Source of the DNA: Planctomycetales bacterium
Lineage (GTDB): Bacteria; 4484-113; JAFGCY01
Direction of reading: 5' to 3'
DNA length: 32,000 nucleotides
Assembly: GCA_022646745.1 (NCBI GenBank)
Contig: CP060262.1
Span: 2,670,001-2,702,000, forward strand
Part shown: positions 4,655 through 29,573 of the stretch, in pieces
Layout: the number at the start of each line of letters is the position of its first letter
Position numbering within the stretch: position 1 is the first letter of the stretch
The notes under the pieces: model-generated
Told to the model about the DNA's origin: nothing
The model's database searches: none
Seen by the model: only the letters and a program-made list of their open reading frames with translations
Translations under genes and position numbers: made by a program

Positions 4655-4730
4655 GGATTACCGGGATATACCGAACAGGGATCTGACTGGGCCGCAAGCC
4701 GCGACAGGCGGCGTAACTGGGGAGGTCTGC

Positions 4731-5951: not shown

Positions 5952-5953
5952 GC

Positions 5954-7162: not shown

Positions 7163-7165
7163 AGA

Positions 7166-7585
7166 ATGAAGCACATAATTTGTATTTGCATTATTCTGAC
7201 GACCCTGATGATCGTCTCCTGTTCTTCAGGCAAGGCAACGAGTGGAAATGTCTGGCAGGGCTGGGTCAGCATCCAGAGGTTCCTTGCCACTGACAGTGAG
7301 AGCGGTTCGATTCCAGTAGCCGGGAAACAGGCGACTCTCAGGGCTTTCGTTCTCACAATGGCGCGACCAATCAAGATCCGCTGGGAATTCGATGCAGCAA
7401 TTGATCCCATCGTCACGGATTACGCACAGGACAGTCTGGTGGAGACGGAGGTTCTGCTTCCCGCGAGTGAGGATGGTTACAACGTGAGATGCACCATGTA
7501 CGTGATCTACAACGACGAGGAAATCCACAGTTCTAGCAATGACTTCTTCGTCATTGGCACCGGCGAAATCCTGAACGCAGAATAG
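7166..7585 (+). CDS. truncated, degenerate member of the lipoprotein family (PKD-like module only)
   Basis: 139 aa. Lipobox MIVS|CSSG. Contains a degenerate signature KIRWEFDAAIDP. AT-richer than its neighbours. No C-terminal module. Confidence 0.55.
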   Translation: MKHIICICIILTTLMIVSCSSGKATSGNVWQGWVSIQRFLATDSESGSIPVAGKQATLRAFVLTMARPIKIRWEFDAAIDPIVTDYAQDSLVETEVLLPASEDGYNVRCTMYVIYNDEEIHSSSNDFFVIGTGEILNAE

Positions 7586-7608
7586 TTGCTTGAAGGGAGG
7601 GAAAAACC

Positions 7609-8847: not shown

Positions 8848-8851
8848 GAGT

Positions 8852-10087
8852 ATGCATCTTGTTGCCAGAACAGTTTTCCTGCTGCCTGTGCTGTGTTGCC
8901 TGCTAATGCTGCCGGCCTGCGGCTCGGGCGGCGAGAAGCAGGGAAGTGTCGATCCACTGGCCGTTACCTTACATCATCCTGTCAGTACCGGGTCTGACTT
9001 CCCGGGACTTTATGGTTATCAAACTGCAAATATCACTGCTGACATCAGCGGAGGTGTTGCACCTTACAGTCTGACCTGGTTCATGGGAGGAGCTGAAGAG
9101 GACCAGTTCACTGACCTTGATGCCGCAGGTACTGCCATGATCTCAGTCCAGTGGCCATACTTGACTCAGGCAACTTTCTATAATCTGCAACTGCAGGTCA
9201 GTGACGCAGCTGGCAACGTAAGCCAGTCAGGTGTAGAGATCACGGTTGGCCAAGCTCAGGATGTCTGCCTCATATCCATTGACAGCCTCACATACAGCGA
9301 TGGACTGATCCGCGTTAGCGGCAGTGATGCCGATGGTGGCGCGCTGACATTTGCCGCGCAACTGGATTCCGGTGAAGTCATCATCACTGGCCCGTTCAAT
9401 GAAACTGCGACATCAGCGGAGTTCGTTGTTAAGCCCATTGATGTGCTGGAAGGCGGAAACTTCACCGTTACGGTCAGTGCCACTTGCGAGTTAGGTTTCG
9501 AGAATGCCTCAGACTCAGTCTCCGGCTCCTTCGATGCATTCCCATTGGCGGATGACAATCTGTACGCCATTGCCACGACGAACCGGGTGAAAGTTGGAGA
9601 GCCTTTGCTGGTTGTTGTAGCAAGCGGAAAGACTGTTAGTCCGTTTGAATTGGTCAACGTTACGATTTCGTGTGAATCTGGAGCTGAGATCGTCTGGGGA
9701 TCTGGTGATATTGGCATCCCAGACGAAGATGGGCTGCCGGATCAGCCATATGATGGGATCTGGGCTGAGTTGGAAGCTGGTCAGGTGGTGTTTGATCAAC
9801 CTTCACGAGGCGGTTTCATGCCTGTCTTCGATTTTGGTGATGGACCACATTACCCATTCAGGCTACGTATTCATGAAGGACTACCTGTTGCCTCAGTTGG
9901 AATCCTCTTCAACTATCAGTACGTGTTCCATGAGCCTGGCACCTATAGACTGTCAATTTTGGAAAATGAGACTATTCCAACTGATTTTCCGTCCACCTTC
10001 TATAGAGAGTTCAGCACTGGTCCGGACCACTTCTGGTCCGACATCAGCAACAACCATGCCTACAACACGATTGTGGTGGAGCTATGA
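8852..10087 (+). CDS. paralogous surface lipoprotein (PKD-like + cadherin-like + conserved C-terminal module)
   Basis: I chose the internal ATG at 8852 (MHLVARTVFLLPVLCCLLMLPA|CGSGG), which is preceded by GGAGTAGGAG. The track start at 8672 would overlap the previous gene by 176 nt. Contains YSLTWFMGGAEED, GSDADGGALTFAA and ...HFWSDISNNHAYNTIVVEL. Confidence 0.8.
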   Translation: MHLVARTVFLLPVLCCLLMLPACGSGGEKQGSVDPLAVTLHHPVSTGSDFPGLYGYQTANITADISGGVAPYSLTWFMGGAEEDQFTDLDAAGTAMISVQWPYLTQATFYNLQLQVSDAAGNVSQSGVEITVGQAQDVCLISIDSLTYSDGLIRVSGSDADGGALTFAAQLDSGEVIITGPFNETATSAEFVVKPIDVLEGGNFTVTVSATCELGFENASDSVSGSFDAFPLADDNLYAIATTNRVKVGEPLLVVVASGKTVSPFELVNVTISCESGAEIVWGSGDIGIPDEDGLPDQPYDGIWAELEAGQVVFDQPSRGGFMPVFDFGDGPHYPFRLRIHEGLPVASVGILFNYQYVFHEPGTYRLSILENETIPTDFPSTFYREFSTGPDHFWSDISNNHAYNTIVVEL

Positions 10088-11301
10088 GCAGACTAAGCTC
10101 TAAATTAGGTTTCGCTGTTTTCCTGATGGCAATATGCCTGACAGCAGCTTGTGGCAACGGAAAATCCGGTACGGTGGAATTGTCTGTTGAACTCATGCAA
10201 CCTATAGGAACCGGCAGTTTCAGCAGCAATCCACTCGCTCAGCAACCTGGTAGATTCTCCGCCCTGGTCAGTGGTGGCACGGCACCGTATGAGCTTGACT
10301 GGCAGTTTGGTGGATGTGCTGATAACCAGGCTGCCGAAGTCACTGAGGCTGGCATTGTGGAGGCCGACGTGATCTTTTATAACCTGGATGCACCTGCGAC
10401 ATTTACAGCCACAGTTACGGTGGTGGATGCCATTGGCAACAGCGATGTTGATTCCGTCACATTCACTGTTATGGTAGGGACCGATTTGTGCTGGCCGTCC
10501 ATAGATTCGGCGAGATACGAGGATGGCATCATCTCTGTGCACGGTAGTGATCCGAGCGGGAATTCTCTCTACTTTGTCGCAGAGCTGGCCAGTGGCAACG
10601 TGACTGTTGAAGGTCCCTTTAATGAAACTGCGGTCTCTGCAGAGTTCCATGTCAAGGTAAACGACATCCTTGAAGGGGGTAACTTTGTGGTTTCTGTAAC
10701 GGCCAGTTGCGTTGAACTTCCAGGATGGGGCACCGACACAACAGATGTCTTCGGCTCCTTCGATGCCTTTCCGCTGGCGGATGACACTCTGTATGCGATT
10801 GCCACCCAGACCCAGGCCGCTGTCGGCGAGCCGGTGCGCATCGTGGTTGCCACGGGCGACACGGCGTCGTCGTTCCAGTACCTCAATTCCTGCATCCTCA
10901 CCTGGCAGGTGGGAGGCAGCTATGTGGGCCAGTCCTTCGACATCGGCGCGCCGGATGATGTGCCGGAACAGGCAGTGCCGATAGACGGAGTCTGGGGTGA
11001 CATGGGGGCGACGAGCTTCCTGCTGAATTTATTCCCAATCGAAACCATGCCGATCGGAAACGGTCTTCTCGGGACCGGCTTCTACGTCACCCCGCTGGGC
11101 GGCTCGGACATCACAGCCAACGGCCTGCTGTTCAACTTCCAGATGGAGTTCGCGGAACCAGGCACCTATACCATCGGTATCTTGGATAACCCGGAAAGTG
11201 TGGTTTCCCGTACCTACTACCAGGACAGTACGGCAGCAGAAGACTACTTCTGGTCCGACATCAGCAACAACCATGCCTACAACACGATCGTGGTGGAGTA
11301 G
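10084..11301 (+). CDS. paralogous surface lipoprotein (PKD-like + cadherin-like + conserved C-terminal module)
   Basis: 405 aa. ATGA start/stop overlap with the previous gene. Lipobox LTAA|CGNG. Contains YELDWQFGGCADNQ, GSDPSGNSLYFVA and FPLADDTLYAIAT...YFWSDISNNHAYNTIVVE. Confidence 0.85.
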   Translation: MSRLSSKLGFAVFLMAICLTAACGNGKSGTVELSVELMQPIGTGSFSSNPLAQQPGRFSALVSGGTAPYELDWQFGGCADNQAAEVTEAGIVEADVIFYNLDAPATFTATVTVVDAIGNSDVDSVTFTVMVGTDLCWPSIDSARYEDGIISVHGSDPSGNSLYFVAELASGNVTVEGPFNETAVSAEFHVKVNDILEGGNFVVSVTASCVELPGWGTDTTDVFGSFDAFPLADDTLYAIATQTQAAVGEPVRIVVATGDTASSFQYLNSCILTWQVGGSYVGQSFDIGAPDDVPEQAVPIDGVWGDMGATSFLLNLFPIETMPIGNGLLGTGFYVTPLGGSDITANGLLFNFQMEFAEPGTYTIGILDNPESVVSRTYYQDSTAAEDYFWSDISNNHAYNTIVVE

Positions 11302-11382
11302 GGGTGGCTGGCCGGAAGTGCAAGGCAACCCAATGCCGCAGTTTGGACCGGAATTCAGGATTACTTACTAAGGAGGACAGGA

Positions 11383-11586
11383 TTGGCGCCGATAGAGAGG
11401 GGAATTGCGGAGTTTGACCGGGATGTAGCCTGCAATTTCTGCCCGGTACTTCACAGTACAGGGGAAATTATGTACCATCTAGGATGTTCACCGCTGGGTC
11501 AGGGGAATCCTGGACAGTTCGTGGATGACCCGGGTGTCGGACACCTGGTGTCCAGGTTCGGGCGAACTACCGCGACCCGATGGTGA
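11383..11586 (+). CDS. hypothetical small protein (67 aa, TTG start); doubtful
   Basis: AGGAGG (11371-11376) lies 6 nt upstream of TTG 11383, inside the 475-bp gap of the array. There is no recognisable motif and the codon usage is unremarkable. Confidence 0.3.
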   Translation: MAPIERGIAEFDRDVACNFCPVLHSTGEIMYHLGCSPLGQGNPGQFVDDPGVGHLVSRFGRTTATRW

Positions 11587-11687
11587 AATCATGGTAGTAT
11601 TTATTGTTCAGGTGTGACTATATTAATAAGGTATGAATCGGCTGTATTATCCGTTCGTCACGGAATTTACTTTTGTGACAGTTTCTG

Positions 11688-11716
11688 TTGCGGTTTAACT
11701 GAGTATCGGATATAAT
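11688..11716 (+). promoter_or_regulatory. sigma70-type promoter candidate for the last paralog
   Basis: TTGCGG (11688-11693), 17-nt spacer, perfect TATAAT (11711-11716). It sits in the AT-rich stretch of the window, about 60 nt upstream of the GTG start. Confidence 0.45.
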
Positions 11717-11776
11717 TGCCAGACTTAAACCTGTACCGTTCCGACACACCTGTGTATGTGGTTAAGGAGGAATGTT

Positions 11777-12982
11777 GTGAAAAACTTTATCGTCCTGGTG
11801 GCACTTGGGCTTCTCGCTCTTGTGTCAAGCTGCGATACTCTTAACATCGGCAGTGGCCAGCCGCAGAGGCTGTCCATCGAGCTGAGCGCTCCGGTGGCAA
11901 CCGGTGCTAACGCACCGGGCCTGTTCGGTTCTGAGACTGCTACGTTTTCCGCTGCCATTATTGGTGTGAACGGACCGTTCAACATCTCTTGGAACTTCGG
12001 CGGCGCCGCCACCAACACGACCAGCACCCTGGCCGTGGCCGGCACCAGCACCGTCAGCGTGACCTTCGTTGACCTCGCTGCTGCCACTGACTTCACCGCC
12101 ACCGCGACCGTCACCGACGGCGCCGGCGTGAGCCAGTCTGATTCCGTGACCTTCAACGTGGGCGCTACCCAGAACCAGAGCCCGAGCATCGACAGCCTGA
12201 CCTTCGCGGGCGGCACGATCTCCGTCACCGGTTCTGATCCGGATGGCGACAGCCTGACCTTCAGCGCTTCCCTTGACAGCGGCGATGTGACCGTGAGTGG
12301 CCCGAATGGTGCCAACGCGACCAGCGCCAGCTTCGGCGTGAGCCCCAACGACATCCTTGCCGGCGGTAACTTCACCGTGACCGTGACGGCTGATGACGGC
12401 AAGGGCGGCACCGCCTCCGATTCCGTCAGCGGCAGCTTCGACGCCTTCCCGCTGGCTGATGACACCCTGTATGCAATCGCTACCGCTTCCAGCGCCAGCG
12501 CTGGCGGTAACGTCCGCATCGTGATCGCCACCGGTGACACCGCCAACAGCTTCCAGTACCTGAACGGCTGCGGCGTGGTCTGCGAGAACGGCGCTTCCTA
12601 TGCCGCCACCTCCTTCGACGTCGGTACCCCGGATGACACTCCGGACGTTGGCTCCGCCAACCCGATCGACGGCGTGTGGGGCGACATGGGCGCCACCAGC
12701 TTCCTGCTGGCTCCGGATAACTTCATCACCGGCACCGATCTCGGCGACGGCACCAGCCGTACCGACTTCAACGTCACCCCGCTGGGTGGTAGTGACATCA
12801 CTGCGAACGGTCTGCTCTTCAACTTCGAGTACACCTTCGCCAGCGCTGGCACCTACACCCTTGGTTTTGAGGCCGTGAACGTTGTGAGCCGCACCTACTA
12901 CCAGGACAGCACTGCTGCGACGGACTTCTTCTGGGGCGACATCAACAACACCCACGACTACAACACCATTACCGTGAACTAG
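11777..12982 (+). CDS. paralogous surface lipoprotein, probable highly expressed copy
   Basis: GTG 11777 lies 6 nt after a consensus AAGGAGG (11764-11770). The track's ATG at 11756 is the alternative start. Lipobox LVSS|CDT. Contains GPFNISWNFGGAATNTTS and GSDPDGDSLTFSA. The C-terminal module is about 85-90% identical in protein to the 4731 and 5954 genes but recoded with C/G-ending codons. Confidence 0.85.
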   Translation: MKNFIVLVALGLLALVSSCDTLNIGSGQPQRLSIELSAPVATGANAPGLFGSETATFSAAIIGVNGPFNISWNFGGAATNTTSTLAVAGTSTVSVTFVDLAAATDFTATATVTDGAGVSQSDSVTFNVGATQNQSPSIDSLTFAGGTISVTGSDPDGDSLTFSASLDSGDVTVSGPNGANATSASFGVSPNDILAGGNFTVTVTADDGKGGTASDSVSGSFDAFPLADDTLYAIATASSASAGGNVRIVIATGDTANSFQYLNGCGVVCENGASYAATSFDVGTPDDTPDVGSANPIDGVWGDMGATSFLLAPDNFITGTDLGDGTSRTDFNVTPLGGSDITANGLLFNFEYTFASAGTYTLGFEAVNVVSRTYYQDSTAATDFFWGDINNTHDYNTITVN

Positions 12983-12999
12983 TAATTAGCTCGAACACA

Positions 13000-13064
13000 G
13001 GTAACAGGAACCAGGCCCGGTTCGGATGTGGAGTAATCCGCGTCCGGCCGGGCCTGCCGTTACC
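13000..13064 (+). other. long imperfect intercistronic stem-loop
   Basis: GGTAAC...CAGGCCCGG (13012-13020)...CGGAT/ATCCG...CCGGGCCTG (13048-13056)...GTTACC. There is no U-tract after it, so it is not a canonical terminator. Confidence 0.4.
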
Positions 13065-13087
13065 ACCCCCCGGATGATGCAGGCCCA

Positions 13088-13117
13088 TTGTCCGGAAAAA
13101 CAGGAATCCGGTACAAT
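13088..13117 (+). promoter_or_regulatory. weak promoter candidate for the 1035-aa gene
   Basis: TTGTCC (13088-13093), 18-nt spacer, TACAAT (13112-13117). AAGGAG lies just before ATG 13196. Confidence 0.25.
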
Positions 13118-13195
13118 TAATGTTATTGGACTCCCTGTTCAATTCTGTGGGCTGCTAGCTGCCCTGAGGCGGCCGGCCCCGAGAAGGAGAGAAGC

Positions 13196-16100
13196 ATGAC
13201 TTTACGTAAGATGTTTACCGGCGTGCTCTGCATTCTCATCCTGCTGATCAGCGCGAGCTGCTCCAACAGCAAGAATGTTGGACTGTCCCAGCCGGATGAC
13301 CAGCGGAACACCACCGGTGTCAGCGTCGATTCCTTTGAGATCACCCGCTACAACGCGGCTGGTTTCGAGGATGCAAGCCTCAACCAGAGCATCGATGCTT
13401 ACATTGAGCAGGTGGGATCCGAGACTGCATTGGTCATCAGCGTTGATGAGCCGGATGTGGATCGCACGATTGCGCTCAACATCGACTTCGACGGCGTCAA
13501 CATGCATTACGAGCGCACCGAGTTCCACGGTCTGCTTGGCAATGATGACGATGTGCTGGGTGCCAGTTTCGGCCTGACTGAAAGTGTCCAGCTTGGCCAG
13601 ACGGCCATCCGTGACTACGATCCGGGCAGCATCAGTGGCCGCTTCGCCACTGTGTACTTCGCCCCCGGCGCGAGCCGTACGGCGAGTGCAATTCCCGGTG
13701 ATGTCTACAAGAGCAGCACCGGTGTTGCCGTCAACCGTTGCGGTGACAACGCCAGCTTCGTGGCTGACGAGGAAACCGAGAATGAGGCCTGGTTCACCAA
13801 TGGCTGGATGATGGCTGACGGTGACCAGAACGGCCAGTGCACGATTGCCGACATCACCCCGATCGGCATCTACCTGAACCAGAGCTGTGAGACCAACCCG
13901 CTCGCGACCCGTGCGGACTATGACAACAACGGCCAGGTTACGATTTCCGAGCTGACCCCGCTGGGCGTACACCTCAATGAGGGTGTGGCAAGTTATCGTG
14001 TTGGCCTGCGTGATGACGGTGATACCGGCACCACGCTGTCTGCAGAGAAGACCGTTGATCCCAGCGCGGACGCGATTGCCGCATCCGGCACTCCGGCGGT
14101 GGCTGATCTGCGCACGATCTTCCGTCATTACAACGTGGCATCCCTTTTCACCCCTGGTGAAATCGCGGCTGCCAACGTTAATGGCACCAACGGTGTCGAG
14201 ATCTGCGTGATTCCGACCAACACCAACTCTGCCAATGGCACCGGCACCCTGGCATTCGTGCCCTGGGGTGGCACAGTTGTTGGTCAGGATGATGAAATCG
14301 TTGTCACCAACTTCGACATCCAGATGGTGGGTGTCGGCGGCGGCAGCGGTGATGACAGCAACATCTTCGACAGCGGCATCAGCGGCGGTGACGTCACTGC
14401 CAACGCTGACGTGAGCTTCCAGGTGAACGCAATCGAGGGTACCTTCAACGGCCTTGACTTCGATGCCACCACCCTGCCAGAGGGCATGGACGCTGCTCAC
14501 TACGCCAATACCCTGACTGCTGTGCGAGACAATGCGAACTGGACCTTCGGCACTGCCGGAGCTGCCGGCTTCCGCAGTACCTCCGCCTGGGTGACTGACG
14601 GTGCGGGTAATGACCTTGGAGGCGTGGGCGACCCCGGCGCCGGTGTGGTCTTCCCGGATTACGACCCCGAGTCTGACGAGTTCAGCCCCGAGGGTACCCT
14701 GAATGTGAACCTCGCTGCCGCAGCCTCCCTGGCGACCGGCACCGTGGCCAGCAAGAACTACAAGGTCGTCGTGCTTTCCGAGCGTGATTACAACTGGACC
14801 GTGGATGTCCTCCGCGACCCGCAGCAGGCCACCTTTGGCCCGATCCTGAAGCAGGGCTTCGACCCGCAGGATGAGTACGCGCTTGTCATCGGTACCCGTT
14901 CCTTCTTCTTCACCGCCGATTGGGGCGATCTTGGCGTTCCCGCCAACTTCGACAGCATCGAGATGGAGATCTGGAAGGTCGAGGGCACCGGCCCGGGCAA
15001 CTGCTCCCGTGTCAACGACTTCACCTTCACCGAAGGTACCCCCGGTACCGGTGAGTTCGGCATTCGTGAGAACACTGAGAACCCCGGCGAGTACGTGTTT
15101 GAGTACGTCGTCAACGGTGCAAACCTGCAGGGTAGCAGCCAGTACGTGGTGCGCTGGTTCAACGGCGTTGAATGGTCCTCCATCAACATGCCCGAGAACA
15201 AGACCATCCCGTCCGGTCCTGCCCCGGCTGCCGCTGACCTGACCAGCATCCCGAACGCGGGCGGCTACAAGGGCAGCGCGAAGGTCGACTTCCTGCAGAT
15301 CCTCTACCCGAACCCGAAGATCCGCCGCTGGAGCGACGTGTTCCCGAACCCCGAGACTGAGTCAGTCGACGTTGAAAAGGGCCTCGACAACGACGGCGTC
15401 CAGGTTGACAAGACCCTGGCCTTCAATGACATTCTGCGCACCAACGGTGATGAGTTCGCGATCTTCGTGACCCCGATCGACAGCCCGCAGGGCTTCTCGA
15501 TCTGGCCCCAGGTCCTGATCAAGAACTTCACCGCCACCGGCGCCAGCGATGTCACCAGTGCTGACATCCCGCTTGCCACCCCGAGTGGCCCGATCTACTG
15601 GTCAGCCTCGGGCGCCAGCGCGATCATCGTCGCCCAGCACGGTCTTGGCCGAGTTGTGGTGGACATCGCCGGTCTTCCCACCGATGACGGTGAATTCGGC
15701 CCGATCAACTACGGTTTCGGCCTGTTCAGCCCGCAGGGTGTGGATTACCTTGAGGTTGGTGAAGGCACCTTCACCATGTCCCCGGTGGATGGCACCGTGG
15801 CCCCGAACGCGATCAACTGGGGTATCGACGCCTTCGACCGCGAGGAGCGCGACCTTGATAACGGTGATTACAGCAACCACATCCTCAACGGTTCCTTCGT
15901 GAACGACCCGGTCCAGCCCTTCGTGCTGTGGATCGAGTTCAACGGCGGTAACGTCTACGACTGGGAGCAGAACGAGGAGAAGGTCTGGAAGCTCAACGGC
16001 TCGCTGGACAACATCTATGTCCAGGTCAAGGACGTTGACCAGCCTGCTGATGTCCGCATCATGGAGGTTGGCCTGCGCCTTGTGGGTGTGACCCCGACCG

Positions 16101-16303
16101 GAACCTTCCTTGCAATCCACACGATCACCAACCGCGACTTCGTCAAGTTCGGCGCTCCGCCGAGCCAGACCTGGGGCATCCTTGCTCCGGGCCACAAGTA
16201 CGAGGTTTCGGTCAATGACCGTGTCCTCAGCCCCGGCGGCGACAGCTTCGGCACCGGCGCTGCTGACCTGCTGACCGTGATCGGTACCAACCCGAACACC
16301 TAG
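13196..16303 (+). CDS. large lipoprotein with a dockerin-like double EF-hand module
   Basis: 1035 aa. Lipobox LISAS|CSNS. Residues ~208-262 are DGDQNGQCTIADITPIGIYL...DYDNNGQVTISELTPLGVHL: two 12-residue D-x-D-x-N-G-x5-[DE] loops, each followed by a helix, as in type I dockerins. The rest is beta-rich with no recognisable catalytic motif. Codons are strongly biased like those of the 11777 gene. Confidence 0.8.
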   Translation: MTLRKMFTGVLCILILLISASCSNSKNVGLSQPDDQRNTTGVSVDSFEITRYNAAGFEDASLNQSIDAYIEQVGSETALVISVDEPDVDRTIALNIDFDGVNMHYERTEFHGLLGNDDDVLGASFGLTESVQLGQTAIRDYDPGSISGRFATVYFAPGASRTASAIPGDVYKSSTGVAVNRCGDNASFVADEETENEAWFTNGWMMADGDQNGQCTIADITPIGIYLNQSCETNPLATRADYDNNGQVTISELTPLGVHLNEGVASYRVGLRDDGDTGTTLSAEKTVDPSADAIAASGTPAVADLRTIFRHYNVASLFTPGEIAAANVNGTNGVEICVIPTNTNSANGTGTLAFVPWGGTVVGQDDEIVVTNFDIQMVGVGGGSGDDSNIFDSGISGGDVTANADVSFQVNAIEGTFNGLDFDATTLPEGMDAAHYANTLTAVRDNANWTFGTAGAAGFRSTSAWVTDGAGNDLGGVGDPGAGVVFPDYDPESDEFSPEGTLNVNLAAAASLATGTVASKNYKVVVLSERDYNWTVDVLRDPQQATFGPILKQGFDPQDEYALVIGTRSFFFTADWGDLGVPANFDSIEMEIWKVEGTGPGNCSRVNDFTFTEGTPGTGEFGIRENTENPGEYVFEYVVNGANLQGSSQYVVRWFNGVEWSSINMPENKTIPSGPAPAAADLTSIPNAGGYKGSAKVDFLQILYPNPKIRRWSDVFPNPETESVDVEKGLDNDGVQVDKTLAFNDILRTNGDEFAIFVTPIDSPQGFSIWPQVLIKNFTATGASDVTSADIPLATPSGPIYWSASGASAIIVAQHGLGRVVVDIAGLPTDDGEFGPINYGFGLFSPQGVDYLEVGEGTFTMSPVDGTVAPNAINWGIDAFDREERDLDNGDYSNHILNGSFVNDPVQPFVLWIEFNGGNVYDWEQNEEKVWKLNGSLDNIYVQVKDVDQPADVRIMEVGLRLVGVTPTGTFLAIHTITNRDFVKFGAPPSQTWGILAPGHKYEVSVNDRVLSPGGDSFGTGAADLLTVIGTNPNT

Positions 16304-16326
16304 GATCCCCTTTTGAGTGGATTCCC

Positions 16327-16356
16327 GGCCCCCCGCCCCGGCGGGGGGCCTTTTTG
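16327..16356 (+). terminator. rho-independent terminator
   Basis: GGCCCCCCG (16327-16335) pairs with CGGGGGGCC (16342-16350), followed by TTTTTG. It lies 24 nt after the stop of the 1035-aa gene. Confidence 0.85.
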
Positions 16357-16367
16357 CTTTCTGCGGC

Positions 16368-16407
16368 AGTCAATCTGATTGACTTCACCCAGCCACTCTG
16401 GTATCAT
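16368..16407 (+). promoter_or_regulatory. arg operon promoter with an overlapping palindromic operator candidate
   Basis: TTGACT (16379-16384), 17-nt spacer, TATCAT (16402-16407). The perfect palindrome AGTCAAT-CTG-ATTGACT (16368-16384) covers the -35 box. Confidence 0.5.
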
Positions 16408-16417
16408 TCGCGAACCG

Positions 16418-16498
16418 ATGACCCAGATCATCAACAGCATTGAGCGCCGACGCCGCAGCAGCCGCCGACGAGGGCGGGCTGATGGCGCGCGTGGATAG
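16418..16498 (+). CDS. Arg-rich leader peptide candidate (26 codons)
   Basis: ATG 16418 ... TAG 16496-16498 encodes MTQIINSIERRRRSSRRRGRADGARG, with 9 Arg in 26 residues and 8 of them between codons 10 and 20. There is no SD, but the ATG lies only ~10 nt after the -10 box, so the transcript would be near leaderless. Confidence 0.45.
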   Translation: MTQIINSIERRRRSSRRRGRADGARG

Positions 16499-16520
16499 CT
16501 GTATCCCCCACGACATTCAA

Positions 16521-16552
16521 GGCCCGCTGTAATGGCGGGCCTTTCTGTTTTC
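16521..16552 (+). terminator. attenuator terminator upstream of argG
   Basis: GGCCCGC (16521-16527) pairs with GCGGGCC (16535-16541), followed by TTTCTGTTTTCT. It lies between the leader ORF and argG. Confidence 0.6.
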
Positions 16553-16606
16553 TAGCGTCAATCAGCCCCGGATCATTCCCTCATAACACCCAGGCAGGAG
16601 CAACTG

Positions 16607-17824
16607 ATGAACGACTATGCAGGCAAACCACTGGCGGTACTGGCCTTCTCCGGTGGTCTTGATACATCTTTTTGTGTTGTATGGCTCATTGAGCAGGGCT
16701 ATCGTGTCCATACTGTGCATGTGAACACCGGTGGCTTTGATGCCGCCGGCCTCGCTGCCATCGAGCAGCGGGCATTGCAGTGCGGTGCCCAGCAGCATGC
16801 CAGCATTGACGCCCGGGCCGACTTGTTCCAGTCGCACCTGCGCTACCTGCTGTTTGCCAACGCGCGGCGCGGTGCGGGATATCCGTTGTGTGTCTCTTCG
16901 GAGCGGCTCTGCCAGGCGCGGCACGCAGCTAAGTATGCTGTGGAGAATAAGGCTGATGCGATCGTGCATGGCAGTACCGGTGCCGGCAATGACCAGCTGC
17001 GCTTTGACACAGTGTTCGGGGTGATGGCTCCCGGCATCAGGCTACTCACACCGATCCGTGATCTGGCCCTCAGTCGCGAACAGGAGGTGGCCTACCTGGC
17101 AGGGCATGGCGTGGAAGTGGATGCCAGCACGGGATCCTACAGCGTGAACGCCGGAATGTGGGGTATGACCATCGGAGGCAGGGAAACCCATGGCAGCTGG
17201 GAAAGCCTGCCTGCTGAAGCATGGCCAGATGCGGCCTCTTCGCAGGTTGCTGTCCGGGAAATCATCATCGGTTTTGAGCAGGGCATTCCCATATCAGTCG
17301 ATGGCACGTCCATGCCGCCCGTGGAACTGATCGAGATGCTCAATACAGTCGGCGGGCAATTCGCAATCGGCCGCGGCATGCACCTCGGAGACACCGTGCT
17401 TGGCATCAAGGGCCGCGTGGCCTTCAGTGCCCCGGCTGCCCACATCCTGATTGAAAGCCACCGTGAACTGGAGAAACTTACACTGAGTGCCAGCCAGCAG
17501 TTCTGGAAGGAGACGCTTGGCAACCTCTACGGCCGGATGGTGCATGAGGGCCAGGCGCTTGATCCGCTCTGCCGCGACCTGGAGGCTATGCTCGAATCCA
17601 GCCAGCGCATGGTCAGCGGTGAGGTCCGCGTCAGGCTGCAGGATGGTTACATGCAGGTGCTGGGCAGCCGTTCGCCGCATTCGCTGATGGCGCTGCAGCC
17701 CGCTGCATATGGCGAGCAGTCCACTGGCTGGAGCGGGGATGAGGTCGCTGCCTACAATAAGCTGCATGCAATGCAGCAGAAGCTGTGCTGGGCCCAGCAG
17801 CAGCAGGCGGAGGCTGCGCAATGA
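16607..17824 (+). CDS. argG: argininosuccinate synthase
   Basis: 405 aa. Contains AFSGGLDTSF (N-type ATP pyrophosphatase motif), YPLCVSSER and HGSTGAGNDQLRFD. These variants look like the Bacteroidota-type ArgG as I remember it. Confidence 0.92.
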   Translation: MNDYAGKPLAVLAFSGGLDTSFCVVWLIEQGYRVHTVHVNTGGFDAAGLAAIEQRALQCGAQQHASIDARADLFQSHLRYLLFANARRGAGYPLCVSSERLCQARHAAKYAVENKADAIVHGSTGAGNDQLRFDTVFGVMAPGIRLLTPIRDLALSREQEVAYLAGHGVEVDASTGSYSVNAGMWGMTIGGRETHGSWESLPAEAWPDAASSQVAVREIIIGFEQGIPISVDGTSMPPVELIEMLNTVGGQFAIGRGMHLGDTVLGIKGRVAFSAPAAHILIESHRELEKLTLSASQQFWKETLGNLYGRMVHEGQALDPLCRDLEAMLESSQRMVSGEVRVRLQDGYMQVLGSRSPHSLMALQPAAYGEQSTGWSGDEVAAYNKLHAMQQKLCWAQQQQAEAAQ

Positions 17825-18888
17825 GGATCAGGGCTGACAAGATCGCCAGTGTGACGCGTGGGCTGTCGCTGGACAGCCAGCTCTCACTGGGCAGTGAGAT
17901 ACTCTGCCGGGAGGGAAGTGTCGTCGCATGTCGCGTGCTCAACGACAAGTCCACCTACCGGCAGCTGGAGGACATCCACGGCCGAATGACCTCAGTCAAG
18001 CGCGGAGACGTGATCGTCGGTGTGCTTGGCAACCGGCAGGCCCTGCATGGCTATGAGGGCCACGTGCCTGAATCGCTGGCAGTCGGCGACAGGTTGCAGC
18101 TGCTGAACCTTGGCGGGGTGATCGGAGTCTGCACCTCAGCCAATCCTGAAGTCGGTCCACCCTTTGAACTGGAACTGCTGGGCCAGGTCCAGAGCTATCC
18201 CGGCTTCCAGTCGCGGCGTCCGGTGGCAGCGGAGATCAGCCAGCCTGATGCAGGCTTGCCTGAGCTCAGTAATATCCCGCCGATCGTTCTGATCTGCGGC
18301 AGCTGCATGAACAGCGGCAAGACCGTGGCCGCCAGTGCGATCGTCAGTGAACTGTGCCGGGCCGGCCTGCTGGTTGCTGGCGCAAAGCTGACTGGCGTAT
18401 CCCTGCTGCGTGATGTGCTCTCCATGAAGGACTACGGCGCTGCCAACGTGATGGATTTCACCGATGCCGGATTCCCGAGCACGGTACCCAGCAATGCCGT
18501 GATGGCTGCCCGCCGCGTGGTCAATGGACTGTCGCAGTTCAAGCCGCAGGTGATTGTCGTGGAAATGGGAGACGGGATCTTTGGCACCTATGGTGTGCAG
18601 CAGATCCTTGACGACAGCAGCATCGCCGGCTGCATCAAGGTGCTGGTGTACTGTGCGAATGACCCGGCCGGAGCCTTCGGTGGGGCCCGCCAGCTGCAGG
18701 AGCGGCACGGGCTGGCGCTTGATGTGGTCAGTGGTCCTGTGACCGACAACCAGGTCGGACGACGCTATATCGAGGAGGAGCTCGGATTGCCTGCAATAAA
18801 TGCAAGAATGGATGCGGCGGCACTCGGTGGGCTGGCATTACAGGCGCTGGGCTACGGTCCTGCTGGAGGCGGCGATGCGACAGATTGA
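17821..18888 (+). CDS. uncharacterised P-loop protein embedded in the arg operon
   Basis: ATG 17821 overlaps the argG stop (ATGA). 355 aa. The N-terminal ~150 aa look beta-rich (GSVVACRVL...KRGDVIVGVLGNRQ). A Walker-A-like motif ICGSCMNSGKT follows, then a hydrophobic strand with acidic residue VIVVEMGDG. The 3' end overlaps argC by 14 nt. Confidence 0.6.
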   Translation: MRIRADKIASVTRGLSLDSQLSLGSEILCREGSVVACRVLNDKSTYRQLEDIHGRMTSVKRGDVIVGVLGNRQALHGYEGHVPESLAVGDRLQLLNLGGVIGVCTSANPEVGPPFELELLGQVQSYPGFQSRRPVAAEISQPDAGLPELSNIPPIVLICGSCMNSGKTVAASAIVSELCRAGLLVAGAKLTGVSLLRDVLSMKDYGAANVMDFTDAGFPSTVPSNAVMAARRVVNGLSQFKPQVIVVEMGDGIFGTYGVQQILDDSSIAGCIKVLVYCANDPAGAFGGARQLQERHGLALDVVSGPVTDNQVGRRYIEEELGLPAINARMDAAALGGLALQALGYGPAGGGDATD

Positions 18889-19933
18889 CGTGATCATCAT
18901 CGGAGCCAGCGGCATGGGAGGCGGTGAGCTGTTGCGCTACCTCATGCAGCATCCACTTGCCAATCCCATTCAGCTTGTCAGCCGCAGCCGGGCAGGGGAG
19001 TCCGTCGCGTCAGTCCATCCGCATCTCGGAGCCTATGCACAGATGCGCTTTGAGGCCAGTCTGGGACTGCCCTCAGGCGAATCCAGCGACCCGCTTGTCA
19101 TCTTCTGCGCGATGGGACATGGCGAGTTTGCCCAGTCCTGGCCAGCGCTGCGCGACCAGCTGGAGTTGCTCAGGAAGCACAGGAGGGTAGTCGTGATCGA
19201 CATCTCCGCTGACTTCAGGCTGAGTGACCCTACAGCATGGCTCAAATACTATTGTGAGGCGCATCCCTGCCCGCAGTACCTGGATGATTTCGTCTACGGC
19301 CTGCCGGAACATGCCCGGGACGCAATCGCCATCTCAGACCGGATTGCCAGTCCAGGCTGCTTTGCCACCGCGATCAACCTCTGCCTGCTGCCACTTGCCG
19401 GCAGAATAAGCAGCAAGCATGTAGCCATCGCTGCCATGACCGGCAGCAGCGGCTCCGGCAATCGTCCATCAGAAGGCACGCACCATCCATTCAGGGCGCA
19501 TGACCTGCGCGCTTACCAGATGCTGCGCCACCGGCACCAGGCTGAACTGGAGATGATGCTGGCAGCCCGTGGCAACAAGGATGTGCGGATCTCCTTCGTG
19601 CCCCACAGTGCCCCGCTGGTGCGCGGGATCTTTGCAACGGTGATGATTGACTGTGACAGTGCCGCCGAAGCGCGTGAGCTGGCTGGACTGGTTGCCAGCA
19701 GCTATGAGGGCGAGCCATTCGTGCATTACACTACCGCCTCGCCACGTGTGGCTGTGGTTGCCGGCAGCAACATGGCACAGGTCACGGTCAGCAGTGAGGA
19801 TCGCAGCCTGCTCGTGATGTGTGCGATTGACAACCTTGGCAAGGGCATGGCTGGGCAGGCAATCCAGAACATGAACATCGCACTCGGGCTTGATGAAACC
19901 AGCGGGCTGCAGTCAGCGGCGGTCTACCCCTAG
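18875..19933 (+). CDS. argC: N-acyl-gamma-glutamyl-phosphate reductase
   Basis: The internal ATG 18875 gives MRQIDVIIIGASGMGGGELLRYL, a Rossmann NAD(P) fold. The catalytic Cys motif is ASPGCFATA. C-terminal motif: DNLGKGMAGQAIQNMN. Confidence 0.9.
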   Translation: MRQIDVIIIGASGMGGGELLRYLMQHPLANPIQLVSRSRAGESVASVHPHLGAYAQMRFEASLGLPSGESSDPLVIFCAMGHGEFAQSWPALRDQLELLRKHRRVVVIDISADFRLSDPTAWLKYYCEAHPCPQYLDDFVYGLPEHARDAIAISDRIASPGCFATAINLCLLPLAGRISSKHVAIAAMTGSSGSGNRPSEGTHHPFRAHDLRAYQMLRHRHQAELEMMLAARGNKDVRISFVPHSAPLVRGIFATVMIDCDSAAEARELAGLVASSYEGEPFVHYTTASPRVAVVAGSNMAQVTVSSEDRSLLVMCAIDNLGKGMAGQAIQNMNIALGLDETSGLQSAAVYP

Positions 19934-19936
19934 GAG

Positions 19937-20935
19937 ATGGCAATGCGACACATCACACACATCAGGGATCTTGGAGTAGATGGAGTCAGCCGCGTGCTGG
20001 ACCGGGCACTGGGCTGGAAGACCACTGCACCTGGCGCTATCTTCAGCGGCCGGATCCTTGGCATGCTGTTCTTCAACCCCTCACTGCGCACAAGGGCCTC
20101 CTTTGAGGCTGCCATGCTGCGGCAGGGCGGCCATGCGATAGTCATCGACGTGAACTCCGGCAGCTGGAAGCTTGAAACCGCGGATGGAGCAGTGATGGAT
20201 GGCGACAGGCCGGAGCATATCCGTGAAGCCATCCCCGTACTCGGCGGCTACGTGGACGCGCTGGCAGTGCGCTGCTTTGCCGACGGCAATCCGGCAGTGG
20301 ACGTGCAGGACCAGCTGATGCACAGCATCCGGGCCCACAGCCTTGTGCCCGTCGTCAGCATGGAGTCGGCACGGGAGCATCCCTGCCAGGGCCTGGCTGA
20401 CATGCTGACAATCCGCGAACACTGTGGCGAACTGGCAGGCAGGAAAGTGACACTGAGCTGGGCGCCACACATCAAGCCGCTGCCGCAGGCCGTGCCGAAC
20501 AGCTTCCTGCTGAGTGCCGCAGCAGCGGGCTGTGAGATAACGGTTGCCCATCCGCCCGGGCTTGAGCTGCAGGATGAGGTGCTGAGTGAAGCACAGCAGC
20601 TTGCGCAGGAAAGCGGTGCACGGATCAGCTTTCGCAATGACCAGCAGGCAGCCTGTGCTGATGCGGAAGTGTTATATGCCAAGAGCTGGGGTGGAGCAAC
20701 GGATCTGGATTTCGCCGAGCTTGCAAGGCAGCATAGCGGTTGGCAGGTCACGCGCAGCCTGCTTGAAGCAGGCAATGTGCGCAGCAAACTGATGCACTGC
20801 CTGCCGGTCAGGCGCAACGTGGTGCTCAGTGACGACGCGCTGGACTCGGAGCTGAGCCTGGTGGCACCGCAGGCGCACAACCGCCTGCATGTGCAGCGCA
20901 GCCTGCTGCATGAAGTGTTCAACGGAGGAAACTGA
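19937..20935 (+). CDS. argF: N-acyl-L-ornithine carbamoyltransferase (AOTCase/SOTCase family; Pro92 suggests succinylornithine type)
   Basis: 332 aa. Contains FFNPSLRTRASFE, VMDGDRPEHIRE, HPCQ, YAKSWG, HCLPVRRNV and HNRLHVQ. These match the remembered Xanthomonas AOTCase motifs (FFNPSMRTRTSFE, VMDGDTEEHIAE, HCLPLRRNV, ENRLHVQ) rather than a classical OTCase. Confidence 0.85.
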   Translation: MAMRHITHIRDLGVDGVSRVLDRALGWKTTAPGAIFSGRILGMLFFNPSLRTRASFEAAMLRQGGHAIVIDVNSGSWKLETADGAVMDGDRPEHIREAIPVLGGYVDALAVRCFADGNPAVDVQDQLMHSIRAHSLVPVVSMESAREHPCQGLADMLTIREHCGELAGRKVTLSWAPHIKPLPQAVPNSFLLSAAAAGCEITVAHPPGLELQDEVLSEAQQLAQESGARISFRNDQQAACADAEVLYAKSWGGATDLDFAELARQHSGWQVTRSLLEAGNVRSKLMHCLPVRRNVVLSDDALDSELSLVAPQAHNRLHVQRSLLHEVFNGGN

Positions 20936-21810
20936 TGCACGGATACTATGAATTCCTGCGGACAGCGACGCCCTATGTGCGCGCCAACCGAGGCCGGCTG
21001 TTCGTTGTCAAGCTTGGCGGCGAGATGCTGGACGACCCGCGCATTGCCAGCCAGATCCTTGAGCAGGTGGCGATGCTGCAGCACCTCGGCATAAACATGA
21101 TGCTCGTGCATGGCGGTGCGCCGCAGATCGCCAGCCTCTGTGGGCGGCTTGGATTGCCCGTGCAGATGCACGCCGGCCGCCGCATCACGGATAAGCAGGT
21201 GCTGGAGGCGGTTTCCATGTCACTGTGCGGCAGCATGCAGTCGCACATCTGTGCCGAGCTAACGGCCCTCGGAGTACGGAGTGTCGGTGTCAGCGGAGCT
21301 GATGCCGGCCTCGTGGTTGCCAGTCGCCGTCCGCCGGTGGATGACGGCAGTGGCAACATGGTGGACTTTGGGGAGGTCGGCGACATCACCGACATTGACG
21401 CTTCGCTGATCGCTACACTCAGTGACAACGGCTTCTTGCCGGTGGTGGCCCCGCTGGCCAGTGACGGAGCCGGGCAGCTGCTGAATATCAATGCAGATAC
21501 AGTTGCCGCCGGTCTGGCGGTTGCCTGCGGTGCTGCCAAGCTGATCTTCATGATGAGACCAGCCGGAATCCTCGCCAATGCTGATGACCCGGGCAGCCTG
21601 ATCCCGGAACTCAGCCTTGCGGAACTGAAGGCACTTGAGTCAGATGGATCAATCAGTGGCGGCATGCTGCCGAAGTCGGCTGCCACGCACAGCGCCATTG
21701 CTGGCGGGGTGGAGCGCGTGCACTTCGTCAGCGGCCTGGCTGAGGATGCTCTGCTGCGTGAGATCTTCACCAATGAAGGCAGCGGCACGATGGTGGTGCC
21801 GGATGCTTGA
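20935..21810 (+). CDS. argB: N-acylglutamate kinase
   Basis: 291 aa. The start overlaps the argF' stop by 1 nt. Contains VVKLGGEML, LVHGGAPQI and NINADTVA, amino-acid kinase family motifs. Confidence 0.9.
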   Translation: MHGYYEFLRTATPYVRANRGRLFVVKLGGEMLDDPRIASQILEQVAMLQHLGINMMLVHGGAPQIASLCGRLGLPVQMHAGRRITDKQVLEAVSMSLCGSMQSHICAELTALGVRSVGVSGADAGLVVASRRPPVDDGSGNMVDFGEVGDITDIDASLIATLSDNGFLPVVAPLASDGAGQLLNINADTVAAGLAVACGAAKLIFMMRPAGILANADDPGSLIPELSLAELKALESDGSISGGMLPKSAATHSAIAGGVERVHFVSGLAEDALLREIFTNEGSGTMVVPDA

Positions 21811-22861
21811 TCTGCTGGCACAGCTCGTTTCCATCCGCAGCCTGTCGCGTGAGGAACATGCCTGCGCGGACTTCGTCGAGGGCTGGGCCAGGGATGCCGG
21901 GTTCAGCCCCCAGCGGATTGCCAACAACATCGTGTTTGTGCTTGGCAGTGGTGGGCCGCGCCTGATGCTGAATTCGCACATCGACACTGTACCGCAGTGC
22001 AGCGGCTGGCTAGCCGACCCCTGGACCCCGCGAATTGAGGGTGGAAGGCTGACGGGGCTTGGTGCCAACGATGCCAAGGGCTGCGTGACGGCGATGCTGC
22101 TGGCTGCCCGAGAGCTGGCCGAACAAGGCTGGGACGGACCAGGCACGCTTGTAGTACTGATCAGCGCTGAAGAGGAGATCGGCGGTGAGAATGGCATCCA
22201 GCTCGCCCTGTCGCAGCTGGCGCCGATGGATGCCGCCATCAACGGTGAACCGACAGGGCTGGCTCCCTGCAATGCGCAGCGTGGCATGCTGCTGCTGGAA
22301 TGCAGCAGCCATGGCAATTCCGGGCATGCGGCACATGCACACAAGCTGGGTCTTGAAAATGCTGTGCATGCCGCAGCCCGCGACATCAGCTGCCTGAGTG
22401 AAATGCAGTTTGAACCATATGAAGAGGTCTACGTAACCCGGCCACAGGTCACGGTTGTCAAGGGCGGGCTGAGCCACAACCAGGTGCCGGACCTATGTGA
22501 GTTCCAGGTGGACATCCGCACCACACCGAACCTTGACCATGACGAGACCCTGGCATGGATCCGCAGCCAGCTCTCATGCGATGTGCGCTGCCGCTCGGCT
22601 CGCTACCTGCCGGTCAGTACATCGCGCAGCCATCCCGTTGTCAGGGCGGCAGTCGCGGCCAGCGGCAGGGAGACATACTTCAGCGACACATGCAGCGACT
22701 GGTCGCTGTACGGCGGCATCCCGACAGTCAAGCTTGGACCGGGTGAAAGCCCGCGCAGCCACCGTCCCGAGGAATACATCCTCGAGTCGGAACTGCTCGC
22801 TGGCGTGGAGATCTACCGGGAAACTGTTTTGCGTTTCTTCGAGGAGGCTGGCAATGAGTGA
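21803..22861 (+). CDS. argE: M20-family deacylase (ArgE-like; predicted acyl-citrulline/acyl-ornithine deacylase)
   Basis: The internal ATG 21803 gives MLDLLAQLVSIRSLSREEHACADFV. Contains LNSHIDTVP, GANDAKG and SAEEEIGG, the M20 metal ligand motifs. It overlaps argB by 8 nt. Confidence 0.8.
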   Translation: MLDLLAQLVSIRSLSREEHACADFVEGWARDAGFSPQRIANNIVFVLGSGGPRLMLNSHIDTVPQCSGWLADPWTPRIEGGRLTGLGANDAKGCVTAMLLAARELAEQGWDGPGTLVVLISAEEEIGGENGIQLALSQLAPMDAAINGEPTGLAPCNAQRGMLLLECSSHGNSGHAAHAHKLGLENAVHAAARDISCLSEMQFEPYEEVYVTRPQVTVVKGGLSHNQVPDLCEFQVDIRTTPNLDHDETLAWIRSQLSCDVRCRSARYLPVSTSRSHPVVRAAVAASGRETYFSDTCSDWSLYGGIPTVKLGPGESPRSHRPEEYILESELLAGVEIYRETVLRFFEEAGNE

Positions 22862-29477: not shown

Positions 29478-29573
29478 TTCAATCACCTCGTAGAGCTTTA
29501 CCGGGCTATCCTGGCAACTGCGGATTTGGCAATTCCCTGCCCGACGCCGGAATAATATCCAGAAAATCCGGCT

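Follow-up and report, generated by a model that had tools for sequence, protein, structure and literature searches.

Upstream of argG, in a 32,000-nt stretch of the genome of an uncultured Planctomycetales bacterium (GTDB lineage Bacteria; 4484-113; JAFGCY01), there is a compact leader unit that is probably a ribosome-mediated transcription attenuator of the argG operon, sensing charged tRNA-Arg. The stretch (contig CP060262.1 of assembly GCA_022646745.1, positions 2,670,001 to 2,702,000 of the forward strand) will be called the window, and all coordinates are counted from its first letter. The unit comprises a promoter, an open reading frame (ORF) of 26 codons, nine of them for arginine, and a hairpin with a U-rich tail located before argG, and it is kept upstream of argG in related genomes. 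A previous sequence-only reading of this DNA had proposed such an attenuator. The sequences on which it relied, i.e., AGCCGCC (16460-16466), GGCGGGCT (16473-16480), GCGGGC (16474-16479) and GCCCGC (16522-16527), proved to be exact in both letters and position.

An arginine-rich leader between two terminators

The interval 16300-16620 was read directly and scanned for terminators, promoter-like sites and ORFs (Table 1). The gene upstream of the unit codes for a protein of 1035 aa, ends at 16303 and is followed, as the sequence-only reading had it, by a strong terminator with a stem at 16327-16350 and a T run. This terminator insulates the leader unit from transcription of the preceding gene, and an equivalent hairpin is found after the upstream gene in relatives L005, L009, L012, L013, L014, L015 and L100 (loci are designated by our own numbers). 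Over 20 nt, the 3′ arm plus tail of this terminator (16343-16362) is 85% identical to the corresponding part of the leader terminator (16534-16553; GGSGGGCCTTTYTGYTTTCT).

The promoter that comes next had been given as TTGACT-17-TATCAT, and this holds: it agrees with the sigma-70 consensus at 10/12 positions and has a TG extension. Only two promoter-like sites were observed in the region 15800-17200, where 0.3 would be expected from shuffled sequences, and the window scan found none between the leader terminator and argG. The pattern TTGACN-17 nt-TANNNT is common to the 13/13 loci of the lineage (the window plus 12 others, see below) and to the more distant L059; the hexamers are kept while the spacer sequence varies. 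Overlapping the −35 box, at 16368-16384, is a perfect palindrome, AGTCAATC-T-GATTGACT. Past the leader terminator, GTCAATCAG (16557-16565) recurs and forms a 9-nt inverted repeat with 16375-16383. The palindrome and this repeat are present in the window and L009 only, not in the other relatives, and the palindrome could be an operator for some regulator or a product of chance.

The leader ORF was confirmed where the earlier reading had placed it, at 16418-16498, with 9 Arg codons and a start about 10 nt past the −10 hexamer. It sits 109 nt before argG. Arginine makes up 9/26 of its codons (35%), compared with 4.4% in ten genes of the window, in the arrangement RRRR-xx-RRR-x-R. An ORF with at least seven Arg in a 10-codon window appeared in only 3/5000 dinucleotide-preserving shuffles of the 256-nt intergenic region. 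Codon choice is also peculiar: CGA, the second-rarest Arg codon, accounts for 10/207 Arg codons in the ten window genes vs 3/9 in the leader, and the pair CGA-CGA at codons 17-18 is invariant among close relatives. The hairpin with a U-rich tail announced before argG is equally real (stem 16519-16543, then TTTCTGTTTTCT), and the Shine-Dalgarno sequence of argG lies ~50 nt past it. Both argininosuccinate synthase domains match in the ArgG of the window.

Table 1. Features of the leader unit, the argG operon and the genes upstream in the window
Feature	Position	Strand	Sequence or content	Basis or remark
Run of seven ORFs	3371-4654, 4731-5951, 5954-7162, 7609-8847, 8672-10087, 10084-11301, 11756-12982	+		
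Intrinsic terminator of the upstream 1035-aa gene	16327-16360	+	10 G-C pairs, 4-nt loop, then TTTTTGCTTT	
Sigma-70-type promoter	16379-16407	+	−35 TTGACT (16379-16384), 17-nt spacer, extension TG (16399-16400), −10 TATCAT (16402-16407)	
Gap between −10 and ATG	16408-16417	+	10 nt, without Shine-Dalgarno sequence	Spacing
Start-codon hairpin (helix 1)	16417-16432	+	Small 5′ hairpin GAUGA/UCAUC including the start codon	Folding, alignment
Leader ORF	16418-16498	+	26 codons plus TAG, encodes MTQIINSIERRRRSSRRRGRADGARG	ORF scan, conservation
First Arg run	16445-16456	+	Codons 10-13, CGC CGA CGC CGC	Conserved R-R-R-R; proposed stall site
Second Arg run	16463-16471	+	Codons 16-18, CGC CGA CGA	Inner region 1 and loop of 1:2
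1:2 hairpin (predicted)	16445-16493	+	Region 1 (16445-16466) with region 2 (16473-16493, codons 19-26)	−30.2 kcal/mol
2:3 anti-terminator (predicted)	16473-16528	+	GGCGGGCUGAUG (16473-16484) with 16514-16517 and 16521-16528	−26.5 kcal/mol
Hairpin across the stop codon (predicted)	16488-16512	+	GUGG.../...CCAC, nested in the anti-terminator	Folding
3:4 terminator (predicted)	16519-16554	+	AAGGCCCGCU, loop GUAAU, GGCGGGCCUU, then UUCUGUUUUCU	−18.9 kcal/mol
Box past the terminator	16553-16568	+	CGTCAATCAGCCC, complementary to region 2	Inverted repeat I8, 8 nt perfect
argG and its Shine-Dalgarno sequence	16596-17824	+	AGGAG (16596-16600), ATG at 16607, end at 17824	First gene of the putatively controlled operon
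Rest of the operon	17821-24200	+	X, argC, argF′, argB, argE-like, argH	Pfam/NCBIfam

The unit is conserved next to argG

Relatives were gathered through ArgG homologues. These gave 12 more loci (10 distinct sequences), with an ArgG 61-90% identical to that of the window, and in all of them the DNA upstream of argG carries the leader unit. The conserved Arg-codon runs that the sequence-only reading had suggested looking for upstream of related arg operons are thus present. The peptide follows the motif x-E-R-R-R-R-x-x-R-R-R-G-R-A-x-x-A-R-G-stop, with a looser Arg-rich form in L018, L019 and L102, and the first run is shortened to R-R-R in L018 and L101. In the relatives the unit also ends in a G+C-rich hairpin and a U tract; the terminator is present in 11/13 loci of the lineage, with a weaker tail in L019 and L102. 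The gene upstream of the unit codes for the 1035-aa protein in most loci, for a product with a trigger-factor N-terminal Pfam domain in the L017 lineage, and for other proteins in L018, L019 and L101. Since the unit stays by argG while its upstream neighbor changes, it belongs to argG.

A covariance model (R1) made from 10 members recovered the held-out L018 (E = 9e-7), L102 (E = 0.004) and L019 (E = 0.24), and found one copy in the window. As background we used 80 argG loci of other lineages among the metagenome-contig matches listed (best identity, 55%), and in these 80 the model found nothing credible. One match in L069 was rejected because it lies inside a coding region, and matches on the minus strand were rejected because they involve only the palindromic terminator. 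Arg-rich ORFs in L030, L032, L040 and L042 were discarded as well, being the out-of-frame 3′ end of an upstream ArgR-like gene; such out-of-frame readings mimic small ORFs rich in Arg/His. By eye, we take the upstream gene to have an ArgR-like C-terminus (...SGDDTIFIAT...) in L022, L023, L028, L030, L032, L036, L040, L042, L046 and L056. In the ~300-nt upstream region of those other-lineage loci the ArgR-like gene ends a few nucleotides before argG, i.e., at the position of the leader, which would fit an equivalent role of the leader in regulation. Among the scanned window ORFs of at least 150 aa there was no argR and no further arg gene.

A more distant locus, L059 (ArgG 52% identical), has an Arg-rich ORF of its own at 1220-1420 (MTTTITSHTLRRRFRRVRSGHRSGYGIRTSAM, which begins MTTTITSHTLRRRFRRVRSG). 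Its start lies 8 nt past a −10 hexamer, TATGTT, and a strong terminator separates the ORF from argG. It was not detected by model R1, and its anti-terminator pairing was no better than that of shuffled sequences (221/300). Tentatively, L059 may be an independent, analogous Arg leader.

Predicted mutually exclusive folds of the leader RNA

The leader RNA folds better than its shuffled versions (z = −3.65). The sequence-only reading had described a classical 1:2/2:3/3:4 arrangement, and both folding and ribosome masking support it, with the difference that region 1 is larger than had been stated and includes both Arg runs (16445-16466). The folding check gave a stability order of 1:2 > 2:3 > 3:4, as a classical attenuator needs, with energies calculated for the isolated elements (Table 1). 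In the minimum free energy fold of the free RNA, the 1:2 hairpin is formed and so is the terminator. Region 2 (GGCGGGCU) nearly repeats the sequence of the terminator's 3′ arm (GGCGGGCC).

These pairings are compatible with the sequences of the relatives. Across the alignment, 84% of cells are paired for the 1:2 hairpin (with 2 pairs changed on both sides), 87.5% for the anti-terminator and 93% for the terminator; controls in which the partner was slid along the sequence gave 36-51%, vs 84-93% for the real helices. The best partner of the 5′ arm of the terminator within the ORF is found at codons 18/19-22 in 13/13 loci of the lineage. In the divergent L019 and L102 all three regions are altered in primary sequence and the architecture is retained: both sides of the anti-terminator differ together, the arm being GCCCGCG and the partner CGCGGGC. 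At the place of the stop-codon hairpin, L017 and L101 have a different stem, GGCUAG/CUAGCC.

The effect of a ribosome was modeled by masking its footprint at each codon and folding the transcript up to the terminator loop, i.e., before the 3′ arm; the shortened transcripts were chosen to mimic the co-transcriptional order. Pairing between the 5′ arm and region 2 reached a probability of ~0.8 in the window when the A site was on codons 10-15/16, compared with 0.46 in the free RNA, and masking of codons 10-15 yielded the anti-terminator in every member tested, including L019 and L102. Only stalling in the first run (codons 10-15/16) is predicted by these models to favor read-through.

A further complementarity involves a conserved box past the terminator. 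The segment GGGCTGATGGCG (16476-16487) of region 2 pairs with this box, which is located beyond the termination point. In L005 and L012 the pairing extends to 10-11 bp, and only 1-2/300 shuffles were as good; a U-A to C-G compensatory change is found in L013 and L015, and the pairing is missing in L100.

Putative translation of the leader ORF from a near-leaderless mRNA

Sequence comparison revealed two very different parts in the ORF. Codons 2-8 vary freely (4 synonymous and 107 non-synonymous pairwise differences). In codons 9-26 the leader frame has 85 synonymous and 74 non-synonymous differences, while the counts become 6/121 and 5/114 when this stretch is read in the other two frames. The leader frame is uninterrupted by stops in every member, and the other two frames contain stops. 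The ATG is kept in 12/13 loci and the length is 26 codons in 9/13 (range, 25-30). This frame-specific synonymous excess points to coding selection, would not be expected of a purely structural RNA, and argues for translation of the leader ORF.

The distance from the end of the −10 hexamer to the start codon is 8-11 nt in 14/14 elements (the 13 loci of the lineage and L059), and 9-11 nt among the 12 relatives of the lineage. Taking transcription to start, as is usual, ~7 nt after the −10 hexamer, the predicted 5′ untranslated region would be ~4 nt long in the window and about 2-5 nt across the elements, and the mRNA would therefore be near-leaderless. As there is no Shine-Dalgarno sequence, the leader ORF would be translated, if at all, in this near-leaderless form, which we consider plausible. 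A small hairpin including the start codon recurs in most relatives despite the hypervariable codons 2-8 (78% of alignment cells paired). L005 and L012 show an A-U to U-A exchange in it, its stem is longer in L013 and L015, and it could modulate leaderless initiation.

The coding signal bears directly on a reading in which translation plays no role, namely that of a structured leader RNA binding a protein or ligand, with the CGN stretch being simply a G+C-rich stem and the ORF incidental. The strong conservation of the 1:2 hairpin and the terminator at the nucleotide level would suit such an RNA, as would the absence of a Shine-Dalgarno sequence before the ATG and the TTG at the aligned start of L101. 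However, we regard this reading as quite improbable: it does not account for a synonymous excess specific to the ORF frame, for an ATG so widely kept and a stop position that is fixed, for a 26-codon length maintained in spite of codons 2-8, for a frame that is open in all members when the others are not, or for the constant promoter-to-ATG spacing. Besides, no Rfam riboswitch or T-box model matches.

Proposed mechanism and alternatives

In the mechanism that we propose, transcription would start just upstream of the ATG at 16418, within a few nucleotides of it, and a ribosome would load on the near-leaderless 5′ end and translate the 26-codon ORF. When Arg-tRNA is ample, it would reach the stop codon and region 1 would re-pair with region 2; with 1:2 formed, the terminator (16519-16543 and the U tract) would form and transcription would end at ~16550, before argG. 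When Arg-tRNA is scarce, the ribosome would stall at the four Arg codons of the first run (16445-16456), covering region 1. Region 2 (GGCGGGCUGAUG) would then pair with the 5′ arm of the terminator as this arm emerges, no terminator would form, and RNA polymerase would read into argG and the six following genes. The second run, with its conserved rare CGA-CGA in the inner stem and loop of 1:2, may tune the response.

Several points weigh against this mechanism. The organism is known from metagenomes only, and the evidence for attenuation is computational throughout. A good Shine-Dalgarno sequence precedes argG but none precedes the leader ORF, and L101 has TTG at the aligned leader start. A ribosome on codons 17-18 covers region 2 and would favor termination. 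When the full-length RNA with a stalled ribosome is folded at equilibrium, the terminator together with local hairpins (−38.0) is preferred by 7 kcal/mol to the anti-terminator (−30.7), and we discarded full-length equilibrium folding with a masked ribosome as a model of the switch, the terminator remaining dominant in the window. Since the terminator is favored at equilibrium, the switch would have to be kinetic and follow the co-transcriptional order, as in known attenuators. In L017, L018, L100 and L101 the free shortened RNA already favors 2:3. As to the covarying stems that the sequence-only reading had proposed to look for, pairing is compatible in 84-93% of cells, but compensatory changes are sparse, with only 2-3 pairs changed on both sides, and the pairs of the anti-terminator are mostly invariant, its core entirely so. 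The covariation score was matched by 131/500 shuffles with the 10-sequence alignment and by 1/500 with the 9-sequence alignment. Given this sparse covariation, for which the statistics lend no significant support, the structures rest on conservation and compatibility. Finally, the C-terminal G-R-A-x-x-A-R-G is kept at the amino acid level, something that a simple attenuator does not need.

This last point leads to the possibility of a nascent-peptide sensor. Through the conserved tail, free arginine or an intermediate of the pathway would cause the ribosome to arrest at or near the stop codon, much as in fungal AAP, TnaC or SpeFL. The choice between terminator and anti-terminator would then depend on where the ribosome is arrested and not on starvation at Arg codons. 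The last eight residues are indeed maintained through synonymous changes (GGG/GGC, CGG/AGG, GCT/GCC, GAT/GAC, GGC/GGT, CGT/CGC and GGA/GGC), the stop codon is fixed in position and a hairpin spans it. However, the nucleotides in question are also those of region 2 and the anti-terminator, and their conservation can be explained by RNA pairing together with coding; many of the changes in the tail are U/C transitions opposite G. L018, L019 and L102 have a different tail and keep the RNA logic, sensing of a free ligand would not need two Arg runs, and resemblance to any known arrest peptide was not established. On balance, we find a sensor of this kind very unlikely.

The tail, the CGA-CGA pair, the hairpin at the stop codon and the box past the terminator that is complementary to region 2 led us to consider also that attenuation could be one part of a two-input sensor on a leaderless mRNA, responding to both tRNA charging and free arginine, in which the peptide or the read-through RNA would have a second arginine-dependent function. 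This is speculative and seems unlikely. The candidates for the second function are arrest at the stop codon by free arginine and an effect on the translation of argG or on the stability of its mRNA; they are as doubtful.

Attenuation in cis also has to be weighed against the existence of an independent small gene for an Arg-rich peptide, perhaps acting in trans, with argG expressed constitutively by read-through or from an unrecognized promoter. The unit does have a full promoter, an ORF and a terminator, and leader peptides with a role in trans are known, e.g., peTrpL (PMC7298713). We consider it highly unlikely, as the unit is always directly upstream of argG whatever the other neighbor, no promoter-like site separates the terminator from argG, conservation is lacking in half of the peptide, and the ORF overlaps, at a conserved position, exclusive pairings with its own terminator. 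Lastly, a chance combination can practically be dismissed: Arg-rich frames are common in G+C-rich DNA such as this intergenic sequence, and several false positives of this type turned up on both strands at other loci, but the Arg density is reached in just 3/5000 shuffles and the unit is kept in 13 loci down to 61% ArgG identity.

Comparison with known systems

With the pairings taken as predicted, the element of the window has the anatomy of a leader-peptide attenuator. Like the classical examples of Proteobacteria (trpL, hisL, leuL, thrL, pheL and ilvL), it has a short 5′ leader ORF with tandem codons for the end product, the 1:2, 2:3 and 3:4 pairings with the same order of stability, and an intrinsic terminator before the first biosynthetic gene. 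It differs in the amino acid, arginine, in belonging to no Rfam family and in its uncultured host. In addition, its ORF has no Shine-Dalgarno sequence and begins ~4 nt from the predicted 5′ end, and it has two separated Arg runs, of which only the first is placed for read-through. Across the whole window nothing matched Rfam at gathering thresholds; the best sub-threshold match (E ≤ 10) was Trp_leader (RF00513), with 23.7 bits vs a gathering score of 41, and neither Thr_leader (RF00506) nor the other Rfam leader families reached the threshold in the window.

Leader peptides without a Shine-Dalgarno sequence have been described before. In Deinococcus deserti 14 leaderless leader peptides were predicted (PMC4007540), and mycobacteria have leaderless small ORFs coding for polycysteine (LL-sORFs) upstream of cognate genes (bioRxiv 10.1101/834739). 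In both groups the ORF is located at or near the 5′ end, as is predicted for the leader of the window, and contains consecutive relevant codons, as here, upstream of cognate biosynthesis or tRNA-synthetase genes, the former being also the case in the window. The mycobacterial Ms5788A, however, is translational, sequesters a Shine-Dalgarno sequence and has to do with cysteine, whereas the element described here has a canonical terminator and arginine codons; its Arg runs are predicted to pair with codons 19-25 of their own ORF and not, as in the mycobacterial type, with the Shine-Dalgarno sequence of argG.

Other systems connect arginine with RNA. In the leader of Salmonella speF, pausing of the ribosome at consecutive Arg codons of orf34 under low arginine selects the mRNA structure (PMC6386406). 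Pausing at Arg codons would choose among structures in the window too, but orf34 has two Arg codons instead of nine, precedes a polyamine gene and works through RNase G sensitivity and Rho termination in place of an intrinsic attenuator. T-boxes regulate arginine genes at the RNA level (PMC1262725), and those of Firmicutes for arginine are, as is proposed for the leader, RNA sensors of tRNA-Arg charging upstream of arginine genes; the difference is that they bind uncharged tRNA directly and need no translation. The T-box covariance model found no match in 16300-16620 even at E ≤ 10. ArgR/AhrC with its ARG boxes also exerts arginine feedback on arg genes, as a protein repressor acting on DNA operators. 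A search with a single consensus, that of the E. coli-type ARG box, found none near 16368-16606 with up to three mismatches, and the one site detected, inside argB, is not above chance.

The sequence-only reading had remarked that leader-peptide attenuation is not a standard mechanism for arginine, and the literature that we searched agrees: no bacterial attenuator of arginine biosynthesis with an Arg-codon leader peptide was found in it, with coverage that was incomplete and did not extend to the 14 leader peptides of D. deserti. In that literature the term arginine attenuator refers to the fungal AAP, the product of the upstream ORF of arg-2/CPA1. There an upstream ORF mediates arginine control of a pathway gene, as is proposed for the window, but the system is eukaryotic, senses free arginine through the nascent peptide and acts on translation and nonsense-mediated mRNA decay. 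AAP is not known to be rich in Arg codons.

The argG operon, protein X and neighboring genes

The operon has the order argG-X-argC-argF′-argB-argE-argH, with genes that overlap or are tightly packed, and the order is identical in L009, L013, L014 and L015. According to Pfam and NCBIfam, argF′ codes for an N-acetylornithine carbamoyltransferase and the argE-like gene for an M20 deacetylase. Protein X (355 aa; 17821-18888, plus strand) is found between argG and argC in all relatives. The sequence of the window protein had no match in Pfam, NCBIfam or PDB. Its 2175 homologues come from Acidobacteria, Gammaproteobacteria and other groups, some bear the UniRef name DUF1611, and 14/20 of the aligned ones match PF07755 (DUF1611 P-loop domain) weakly. 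It has a Walker-A-like motif, GSCMNSGKT, and the AlphaFold model (pLDDT 91) shows an N-terminal beta domain and a SIMIBI-type P-loop NTPase-like domain, whose fold neighbors in PDB are only generic P-loop NTPases (dethiobiotin synthetase and signal recognition particle GTPases). Because the operon has neither argA nor argJ, X may supply the missing first step, as the N-acetylglutamate-forming enzyme of this acetylcitrulline-type pathway.

On the other side of the leader unit, seven ORFs of ~400-470 aa (Table 1) precede the 1035-aa ORF within 3371-16303 on the plus strand. None of the eight had a significant Pfam or NCBIfam family, and weak PKD-like matches were seen only in 11756-12982. In the 1035-aa protein we noticed by eye DxDxNG stretches that are presumably dockerin-like. 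The last two genes of this run are kept upstream of the leader in L009, L013 and L015. Further downstream, at 27208-29648 on the minus strand, there are two adjoining paralogues, in which an Rv2258c-like winged helix-turn-helix domain is fused to an S-adenosylmethionine-dependent methyltransferase domain.

Significance

Arginine biosynthesis is the textbook case of control by a repressor, ArgR, with T-boxes as the only RNA-level control cited for it, and the examples taught for leader-peptide attenuation are Trp, His, Leu, Thr, Phe and Ile/Val. As the mechanism is known from the trp, his, leu, thr, pheA and ilv attenuators, what is new in the proposed element is its specificity for arginine and its context, not the principle. 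It provides a pattern, a leaderless ORF rich in Arg and then a terminator ahead of argG, with which similar elements can be searched for, and a compact part of ~140 nt predicted to respond to arginine. If our reading is true, the logic of ribosome stalling would have been recruited for arginine too, in a little-known, uncultured lineage, and attenuation would take place on a near-leaderless transcript, with a bearing on how transcription and translation are coupled without a Shine-Dalgarno sequence.

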